In this document: positions 2,786 through 4,789 of the stretch, in pieces
Numbering within the stretch: the first letter of the stretch is position 1
Layout of the letters: each line of letters begins with the position of its first letter
From: Chiloscyllium plagiosum
Lineage: Eukaryota
Assembly: GCF_004010195.1 (NCBI RefSeq)
Contig: NC_057759.1
Span: forward strand, 5,145,047-5,209,046
Direction: 5' to 3'
Length of the DNA stretch: 64,000 bases
The notes under the pieces: model-generated
What the model was told of the DNA's origin: nothing
Seen by the model: only the letters and a program-made list of their open reading frames with translations
Database searches by the model: none
Made by a program: the position numbers and the translations under genes

Positions 2786-3139
2786 AAATGGTTGGGAATT
2801 CAAGTTCAGGCAAGATGTGCAGCAGTATGCCATGTGAACAGAGAATTGTGGTTCTCCACTAGCCTTCCCAGAGGATCCAACCTTTTTTCTATTTCAAAAT
2901 ATACTTTATTCATAGAAATAAATCTTTGGTATTTGTACAATTTGTCATGTTGTTCATAGATATATACATTGCATGTCTTAAACATTACAAAGAACAGATT
3001 GAATTCCTCGAATTTACAGTTATCCTATTAACCATCCAGTCTCTTGTTATTTAGCTGTGGCTTCAGCAGAACCCACCTACTGAGTGGGTGCCCTGTTATA
3101 CTATAGCAAATGAACCTTTTTTAATCCCAGTTTATGGGG

Positions 3140-4586
3140 TTACCGTTGTCCATTTGACTGTCCTGTCTCTGGGGTAGCTGTCTGCATCCCCATGGTGAGC
3201 ACGAACTGCTGGACCCTCGCTGGGCTGAGGTAGCTATCCAGGCTCTCACTGGGGTCATTTACCTGCTCTGGAGTCATTGAGCCAAGGCAAAGGTCCGCAC
3301 CATCCAGTTCTGTGTCTGACAATGGGACTATCAGAGGATCGCAGCTCTCAGTTGTCTGTGGTTGTGGGGGAGTGGGTACCCCCTGGTTCTCACTGGGTGG
3401 AGGGTGGACTTCGGGGGGTCCGTTGTTTCCTGGTTGGGAGGAAATGCCCTCCTCTTCATCTACGGCGCTCTGTCTCTTCTTCTGGTGGTGATGACATTCT
3501 TTGCACCAGTCTTCACCATCCGAAGAGCTGGCCGTCCCTCCCTCGTGCAGCTGTCTTTTCCCCCTTTGCTGGGAGGCTTTGGGGGCCTGGCAGGATTTTC
3601 TCTTCCTGTTTTTAACAGGTATCCACTCCTCTGCCTGCTCGATTACCTTCTCCTCCATTGCTTCCATCTGTCCAGCTAGAGCTAGGATCAGCTGCTGTGT
3701 CTCTCCACTGTCTGCCGCCTCCTCTACTCCAGCCTGTTCTTCTTTCTAGATGCCACCAGACTCCGTTTCTCTGCTGTCTGGGTGCACCTTACTGGTCTTT
3801 GGGGGTCCACGGTTCACATTGCTACCTCCAGCCATCTGTGCGTAAGTGCCCCCCCCCCCACCGTCTTGGGCAGGTCTTGTACATGTGGCCCGCCTCTCCG
3901 CACAGGTTGCAGCTCTTTGCTTCCTGACAGTCCTTAGTCAGGTGACCCTCCTGTTTGCAGTTCCTGCAGATGGTCACCTTGCAGTCCGCCGCCACGTGTC
4001 CCGACTTCCCGCAGGTTCGGCACACTTTCGGCTGCCCTGTATATGTCAGGTAGCCTCTGTTCCCTCCAATTGCGAAGCTCGAGAGTGGGTGAAGAATGTT
4101 CCCATTGCCATCGACCCTCAGAGTCACCCTGACCTGCCGCTTACTGGTCCAGATTCCAAAGGGGTCAATCACATCGGTGGCTTCTCCCTCAACTTGGACG
4201 TACCTTCCCAGGAAGGTCAGGACATCAGCCGCTGGAACATAGGGGTTGTACATATGGATTGTAACAACCCGATTCCTCTGTGCAGGAAGCACACACAATG
4301 GGGTTGCCGACAAGATGGAAAACAGCGGCTCCCCTTCCTTCTCCTTGAAGACATTCAGGAGCTGTTCGCACTGCTACACACTCCTGAAGGTCACATCAAA
4401 GTAGCCTGCCCCAGGGAAATCTTGCAGGCAGTACACATCTGCTGCAGCGAACCCACAGCATCCCAGCAGCACTTTCTTGATAAACAGCATGCGGTCAAGC
4501 GGCGTACGATCCTCTATCTTCTTCACAGTCACCCGGACGGTGTTTTGAACCCCCTGCCCAGGTCTGCGGGCAGCTGTTGAGGCCAT
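3140..4586 (-). pseudogene. Tx1-clade ORF1 (ZCCHC3-like RRM-type region plus three CCHC zinc knuckles), decayed
   Basis: MASTAARRPGQGVQNTVRVTV...YCLQDFPGAGYFDVTFRS*...VVTIHMYNPYVP...DPFGIWTSKRQV...YTGQPKV-CRTCGKSGHVAADC-KVTI-CRNCKQEGHLTKDC-QEAKS-CNLCGEAGHMYKTC, then TYAQ and an acidic/basic tail. In-frame TAGs at 4374-4376 and about 3747, and a frameshift in the G-run at about 3849-3859. Confidence 0.88.
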
Positions 4587-4744
4587 GGCTCTGAGGTTGG
4601 CTGGTCCCTGAATTGGCGTTAGGCCGAAGCCAGCATGAAGATCCACCAATAGCAGGTCAGCACAACCAGACGATCCTCCAACGTCCAATCACGATCCAGC
4701 GATTATCTCCACTAGCTCTGATGACTCGCAACTCGACCCCTGTC

Positions 4745-4789
4745 CTGATAAGAACAGATACTACACTAGCCAAAAGGCCGAGAAGCGAT
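4745..4789 (-). ncRNA. U2: U2 snRNA 5' fragment (nt 1-52 with a 7-nt deletion), head of the retroposon, not a functional gene
   Basis: Reverse complement reads ATCGCTTCTCGGCCTTTTGGCTA-GTGTAGTATCTGTTCTTATCAG versus canonical U2 ATCGCTTCTCGGCCTTTTGGCTAAGATCAAGTGTAGTATCTGTTCTTATCAG. Confidence 0.93.

Follow-up and report, generated by a model that had tools for sequence, protein, structure and literature searches.

An ORF1-only retroposon family with an inherited, swappable U2 snRNA head in the genome of the shark Chiloscyllium plagiosum

Results

We analysed a 64,000-nt window of the Chiloscyllium plagiosum genome (assembly GCF_004010195.1, contig NC_057759.1, positions 5,145,047 to 5,209,046), which holds a whole, dead copy of an ORF1-only retroposon at 2882–4789 on the minus strand. 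All parts lie on that strand: a U2 snRNA-derived head (4745–4789), a 5′ UTR common to the autonomous family A described below (4587–4744), ORF1 (3140–4586), a 3′ UTR (2890–3139), and AATAAA (2910–2905) with an A-rich end (2882–2910). The head spans U2 nt 1–52, as the first-pass annotation of this DNA had claimed, although the match is not exact: seven nucleotides, U2 nt 23–29, are missing. In BLAST the head aligns (E = 5e-13) with our reference L031, the U2 gene of this genome that scores best in Rfam, and the Rfam U2 model reaches E = 0.013, under the gathering score; at that score Rfam gives no match anywhere in the window.

ORF1 opens with an ATG at 4586, after a 158-nt UTR, and closes with a TAA at 3142–3140. 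Described earlier as full length, it is so in extent but is not open, broken by two TAG codons (4376–4374 and 3748–3746) and by a 2-nt deletion near 3848 that shifts the frame. A natural open copy (477 aa, L013:1697–3130) occurs in one of the first 30 copies, and from it we transferred the position of the first RNA-binding domain (RBD_ZCCHC3_1st, 4320–4547; Pfam E = 7e-16 on L013), which a stop codon interrupts in the window copy. A second RNA-binding domain (RBD_ZCCHC3_2nd, 4041–4259; Pfam E = 6.5e-26) and three CCHC zinc knuckles (3870–4022, at 4022–3981, 3968–3927 and 3911–3870) follow. A search of the PDB with the ORF1 protein returned weak matches alone, to the knuckles. Named ORF1 homologues come, nearest first, from sharks and rays, then sturgeon, gar and reedfish, and no named Keno or Tx1-Mar reference is among those recovered. 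As a separate observation, the L013 ORF1 has the Pfam domain set of vertebrate ZCCHC3, reported to restrict L1 in the accessible text of PMC10351740; among the shark and ray relatives are genes annotated as ZCCHC3-like, which may be ORFs of transposons.

At 3091–3116, by alignment, the end of the ORF1 region passes into a homologue of the autonomous 3′ UTR just past the ORF2 stop. The 3′ UTR is ~66–77% like autonomous 3′ UTRs where alignable, rising to 94–97% identity over the last 33 nt, a tail common to the ORF1-only element and its autonomous sisters; it folds no better than shuffles (z = −1.0). The window contains no ORF2, no U2 3′ half and no U2 promoter match, which bears out the reported absence of endonuclease, reverse transcriptase (RT) and a flanking snRNA locus, just as the knuckles, AATAAA and A-rich end were all found as described. 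No target-site duplication (TSD) surrounds the element, the best word shared by its flanks being 6 nt. The window copy is a dead member of a real retroposon family.

A search with the whole element gave 1645 candidate loci, with main matches 90–96% identical in the best 40 scored. The 26-nt motif spanning the ORF1–3′ UTR junction, allowing up to two mismatches, has at least 173 genome matches and none in the control, and at all 30 sampled loci (taken from 40 scored of 567 candidates with the C-terminal part of ORF1) the 3′ end of ORF1 enters the 3′ UTR without ORF2. None of these 30 loci, of 567 candidates, is an autonomous parent in which this ORF1 leads on to ORF2. The copy count that the first-pass annotation had proposed therefore shows a junction that is not unique to the window copy, and its suggestion of a non-autonomous ORF1-only family holds. 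The missing TSD and atypical head of the window copy could point to a one-off deletion of an autonomous LINE after insertion, or to an assembly artefact; the junction matches and the 30 loci spanning the junction refute both, and we give this explanation practically no credence.

Fifty-three of the 59 copies with a 3′ end could be evaluated for TSDs within 60 nt of the 5′ end: 20 have TSDs of 8–23 nt and 33, the window copy included, have none. Poly(A) and a TSD together mark many copies, and 5′ truncation is also seen, as in elements retrotransposed as a unit. Mean distance to the majority base is 3.4% across 68 copies (2.7% excluding CpG sites). The family has several subfamilies, and the window copy is placed in a starred subfamily of 12.

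Genome searches with the U2 head and with ORF1 retrieved two autonomous sisters. Family A (~5.6 kb) is dispersed, with TSDs visible by eye, and encodes an AP-type endonuclease (Pfam, E = 1e-12); family B (~5.2 kb) encodes an RT (Pfam, E = 7e-9), and the RT call rests on B, the middle of most A copies being N. The ORF2 deletion, which was to be mapped on an autonomous Keno, could be mapped on these sisters, although neither is named as Keno: the deletion is clean, reaching from near the start of ORF2 to near its stop, and predates the spread of the sampled copies. Over its first 150 nt the ORF1-only element is 97% identical to family A, a value equal to within-family identity, whereas ORF1 is 79–85% identical in its N-terminal half and 67–74% in its C-terminal half. 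Such high 5′ identity against low ORF1 identity implies that the 5′ end was exchanged recently. The ORF1 lineage may be at least as old as the split between A and B, as a weakly supported tree suggests. Mosaic copies also exist (L138, with one TSD around the whole, L181 and L190); they adjoin N gaps and could be assembly chimeras.

A group comparison of 24, 9 and 3 rows gave a net dN/dS on the ORF1-only stem of 0.10 (CI 0.04–0.20) for codons 45–243 and 0.38 (CI 0.23–0.70) for codons 244–477. Since this stem may include time as an autonomous element, we compared variants inside the ORF1-only family, using 68 of 71 copies (L029, L030 and L181 were left out as suspected mosaics) and excluding CpG sites. 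In codons 45–243, private variants (62 synonymous, 165 nonsynonymous) are neutral, with ω of 0.84–0.97 depending on kappa, and shared variants (51 and 55) have an ω of 0.34 (range 0.29–0.44; Fisher p = 0.0003). Removing alleles seen in A or B leaves 27 and 43 shared variants and an ω of 0.39 (p = 0.0002; Fisher p = 0.012). The shared-variant signal is weak in the C-terminal half (ω 0.65; Fisher p = 0.04–0.07). The proposed dN/dS comparison among copies thus separates shared variants (~0.35) from private ones (~0.9); because the former is low and the latter about neutral, ORF2-less source copies needed ORF1 and inserted copies decay. ORF1 is under purifying selection in ORF2-less source copies.

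The motif spanning the head–UTR junction has 137 genome matches (control 3). We sampled the first 30, picked regardless of upstream sequence: 28 lack U2 nt 34–38, 12 start at U2 nt 1–2 and none of the 30 has a U2 promoter upstream. Behind these heads stand 11 bodies of ORF1-only type, 11 of family A, one tail-only match and 7 that were unassigned. Among ORF1-only copies the deletion is present in 28 of 29 informative heads, the window copy being the exception, and of the 32 copies long enough to include the head, 14 begin at U2 nt 1. The genome's U2 gene (L031) lacks this deletion, which presumably removes the branch-point pairing sequence. The U2 head is an inherited, swappable module common to the ORF1-only family and family A, not an invention of the former. 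Departure from the U2 target, presented in the first-pass annotation as a special trait of the half element, is no such trait, for the same head is dispersed with an autonomous family.

Might each insertion gain its head anew through a template switch to U2 snRNA, the way mammalian snRNA–L1 chimeras arise? The window copy, L138 and L141 keep nt 34–38, in L141 a wild-type U2 piece is attached to a deleted head, and the accessible text of PMC4494074 describes recurrent head addition for SINEU-2. One deletion common to nearly all heads in both samples, and absent from the U2 gene, nevertheless rejects fresh capture as a general rule, an explanation that we consider very improbable, and leaves it as a minority process. 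The window copy's subfamily has six members with the deleted head, so its own head was probably re-templated on real U2.

The inherited head ends at U2 nt 52, 14 nt beyond the published Keno junction, and the right edge of the deletion falls at nt 38/39; in Keno, as far as the available portions of PMC4640811 and PMC6136364 go, downstream U2 starts at nt 39. To judge by these end points, the head would fit the 5′ flank plus 14-nt duplication of a U2 insertion at the Keno site. A small subfamily carries an alternative, shorter 5′ end (8 loci, control 0) with a short piece that we take to be U1 nt 9–26 and that Rfam did not call. In L002, L010, L156, L192 and L195 a piece of a relative's ORF1 directly precedes the 5′ end, and in L002 it sits inside the TSD, between TSD and head; pieces so placed fit sources nested in other elements, or template jumps.

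Two further 5′ arrangements deserve mention in their own right. The family B head (5′ ends L137, L110 and L180) is a composite of a U2 piece, a fragment resembling the hot spot in its own ORF1, a degenerate piece that is presumably U1-like, and UTR, an arrangement that resembles fossilised nested insertions. A 356-nt element without an ORF (L142:606–961) joins U2 head and UTR to the family A tail within a TSD of ~11–15 nt, and is SINEU-like.

We found 12 genome matches to a variant U2 promoter. In six of these promoter-bearing U2 loci a relative interrupts U2 no more than ~60 nt from its start, as BLAST shows for four and inspection by eye for two; the other matches comprise two intact U2, one U2 that gives way to other sequence at nt 93, and three uninformative cases. 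In L137, promoter and U2 nt 1–36 are followed by a full-length family B element, after whose poly(A) the rest of U2 resumes with a ~11-nt duplication, and L102 carries an autonomous fragment and a 5′-truncated ORF1-only copy in tandem. The tail followed by U2 3′ sequence has 5 genome matches (control 0), with U2 resuming at nt 38–42; taken together, relatives resume U2 at ~nt 27, 38, 41 or 42, not at one site. Directly after the ORF1-only 3′ end we found U2 in 1 of 59 copies, with 58 outside U2, and relatives in 8 of 59 (three of them at a single ORF1 site and two at a single antisense site in the UTR); the ranked searches behind these counts may be biased towards nested loci. The preference of the group for U2 and its own kin is loose, unlike the strict specificity of Keno.

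The first-pass annotation had a single ORF1-only master residing in a U2 gene, whose promoter would drive a chimeric mRNA from which all dispersed copies descend. Residence in U2 genes stands for the relatives; for an ORF1-only master it is not supported, as neither the family's 5′ end nor the deleted head occurs in any of the 12 variant-promoter loci. Nor was a promoter-bearing master found in the best 40 of 179 candidates with canonical promoter plus head, and these results, with the promoter-free sampled heads, go against transcription of a master from the U2 promoter. What speaks for such a master is the frequent start at U2 nt 1, the head's end past the Keno junction, the interruption of half the promoter-bearing loci (by a full-length autonomous element in L137), the truncated ORF1-only copy in L102 and the chance that U2 arrays are missing from a gapped assembly. 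Against it, two families would each need a master of their own in U2, both with this one 5-nt deletion; the family has several subfamilies and more than one kind of head; and the ORF1 piece between TSD and head in L002 indicates an upstream start or a template jump. We regard a single U2-resident master as doubtful. A junction copy 14 kb from a U2 gene, considered as a candidate, proved to be a mere 330-nt 3′ piece.

The searches turned up other arrangements around U2 and ORF1. In L139, L140 and L103 the tail is followed by poly(A), a U2 3′ piece from nt 38–41 and a second tail; these may be read-through RNAs of U2-resident copies, or nested insertions. Relatives' tails abut a recurrent site in ORF1 (element position 341–347) in L023, L028, L173, L193, L148, L149 and L014; the site resembles U2 nt 31–37, and many ORF1 matches from the genome search begin near codon 48. 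A dispersed second U2 variant (L035–L040, L045, L047, L051 and L057) starts near nt 1 with unrelated upstream flanks, and several copies extend past U2 by varying lengths of a downstream sequence that they have in common. By appearance these dispersed copies are either a SINEU-like family or read-through transcripts that were retroposed. A divergent U2 variant (L034, L042, L043, L044, L048–L050, L052 and L054) is preceded by either of two kinds of sequence: a promoter-like one, akin to the upstream region of the canonical U2 gene, or a shared repeat-like flank.

Discussion

The family is, in our judgement probably, a HAL1-like ORF1-only derivative of a Tx1-type LINE, copied in trans and bearing an inherited, swappable U2 head. 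Its features are those of HAL1 in that ORF1 is kept with ORF2 absent, copies retrotransposed as units and ORF1 is under purifying selection; it is not HAL1 proper, which has an L1-type ORF1, because Pfam gives ZCCHC3-type RNA-binding domains plus CCHC knuckles and no L1 ORF1 family. An ORF1 with RNA-binding domains and CCHC knuckles, together with an ORF2 with AP endonuclease and RT, is a layout that we take to be the mark of the Tx1 clade. It is present here across ORF1 and the sisters' ORF2, and this domain layout and the U2 association suggest membership of that clade.

Non-autonomous LINEs that retain ORF1 include HAL1, HeT-A and Ag-Sponge (PMC5786205, PMC5753468), and the ORF1-only derivatives listed in the available part of PMC5786205 come from the L1, Jockey and CR1 clades, with none from Tx1. 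As those sources portray them, they resemble the shark family as internally deleted, multi-copy LINEs with ORF1 and both ends kept and ORF1 selected; they differ in that the shark ORF1 is of a type with two RNA-binding domains and three CCHC knuckles, and in the snRNA head. Heads of this kind are described in the accessible sections of PMC4494074 for crocodilian Tx1-Mar elements, from U2 in Tx1-11_Crp and from U1 in Tx1-2_Crp, Tx1-2B_Crp and Tx1-4_AMi. The crocodilian Tx1-Mar and SINEU elements share with the shark family U1 or U2 5′ pieces outside snRNA genes, recurrent head addition and 5′ extensions of host-repeat sequence. By their published text, Tx1-Mar elements are autonomous LINEs and SINEUs are non-coding and under 500 bp. 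The shark element has the U2-derived head of a SINEU, but is a 1.9-kb, protein-coding, non-autonomous element with a 477-aa ORF, and its relatives still enter promoter-bearing U2 loci.

Likeness to Keno, within what PMC4640811 and PMC6136364 make available, lies in the sisters' AP endonuclease and RT, in insertion near the U2 5′ end and in the position of the head's end relative to the Keno junction. The ORF1-only family differs in having neither enzyme and no U2-specific insertion resuming at nt 39: nearly all its sampled 3′ ends lie outside U2, and relatives resume U2 at several nucleotides. By the features tested, the family works like HAL1 and is neither Keno nor a SINEU.

In the mechanism that we favour, ORF1-only RNA would be copied in trans by target-primed reverse transcription, using the ORF2 of co-resident autonomous families; the shared last 33 nt and poly(A) are what point to mobilisation by A or B. 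ORF1 would be selected probably because its protein packs its own RNA into particles with autonomous proteins, and particle sharing through ORF1 has been proposed for HeT-A, HAL1 and Ag-Sponge in the accessible text of PMC5786205. An ancestor may have picked up the U2 head at a U2 gene, probably as nt 1–52, with a 14-nt duplication at the Keno site as its last part. The head would then have lost nt 34–38 and passed between the ORF1-only family and family A by template switching, the route and direction being what we infer, with occasional replacement of heads, as in the window copy.

Transcription from a U2 promoter is plausible. The promoter may be that of an unassembled master in a U2 gene, an appreciable possibility; read-through from a host element or flank, and an internal promoter in the UTR, are each a lesser one. 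A more daring proposal, which we advance tentatively and think unlikely, is a promoter-less, protein-coding LINE parasite that owes its polyadenylated, translated mRNA to the promoter of an snRNA gene, used directly or from within a U2-resident relative, and that trades U2- and U1-derived heads with its autonomous hosts. As a part of that proposal, and no more probable than the whole, loss of nt 34–38 might remove the Keno-type target from the element's own head.

We found no report of an ORF1-only Tx1 element or of a shark SINEU in the literature searched. The family is a new combination of known traits (ORF1-only, a selected ORF1 and a swappable U2 head), its novelty being judged from literature descriptions. 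Among the few ORF1-only LINE parasites on record it is a Tx1-type case, and one in which selection on ORF1 among ORF2-less sources is directly evidenced; it also takes snRNA-headed retroposons beyond crocodilians, to a cartilaginous fish. The transcription of SINEU-type elements is posed as an open question in the available text of PMC4494074, where most families are old. With shark copies ~3% away from the majority of their family, heads of different kinds side by side, and relatives within promoter-bearing U2 loci, the family is suited to resolving that question; if the promoter-less reading is true, it would provide a young, testable model for the transcription of snRNA-headed retroposons.
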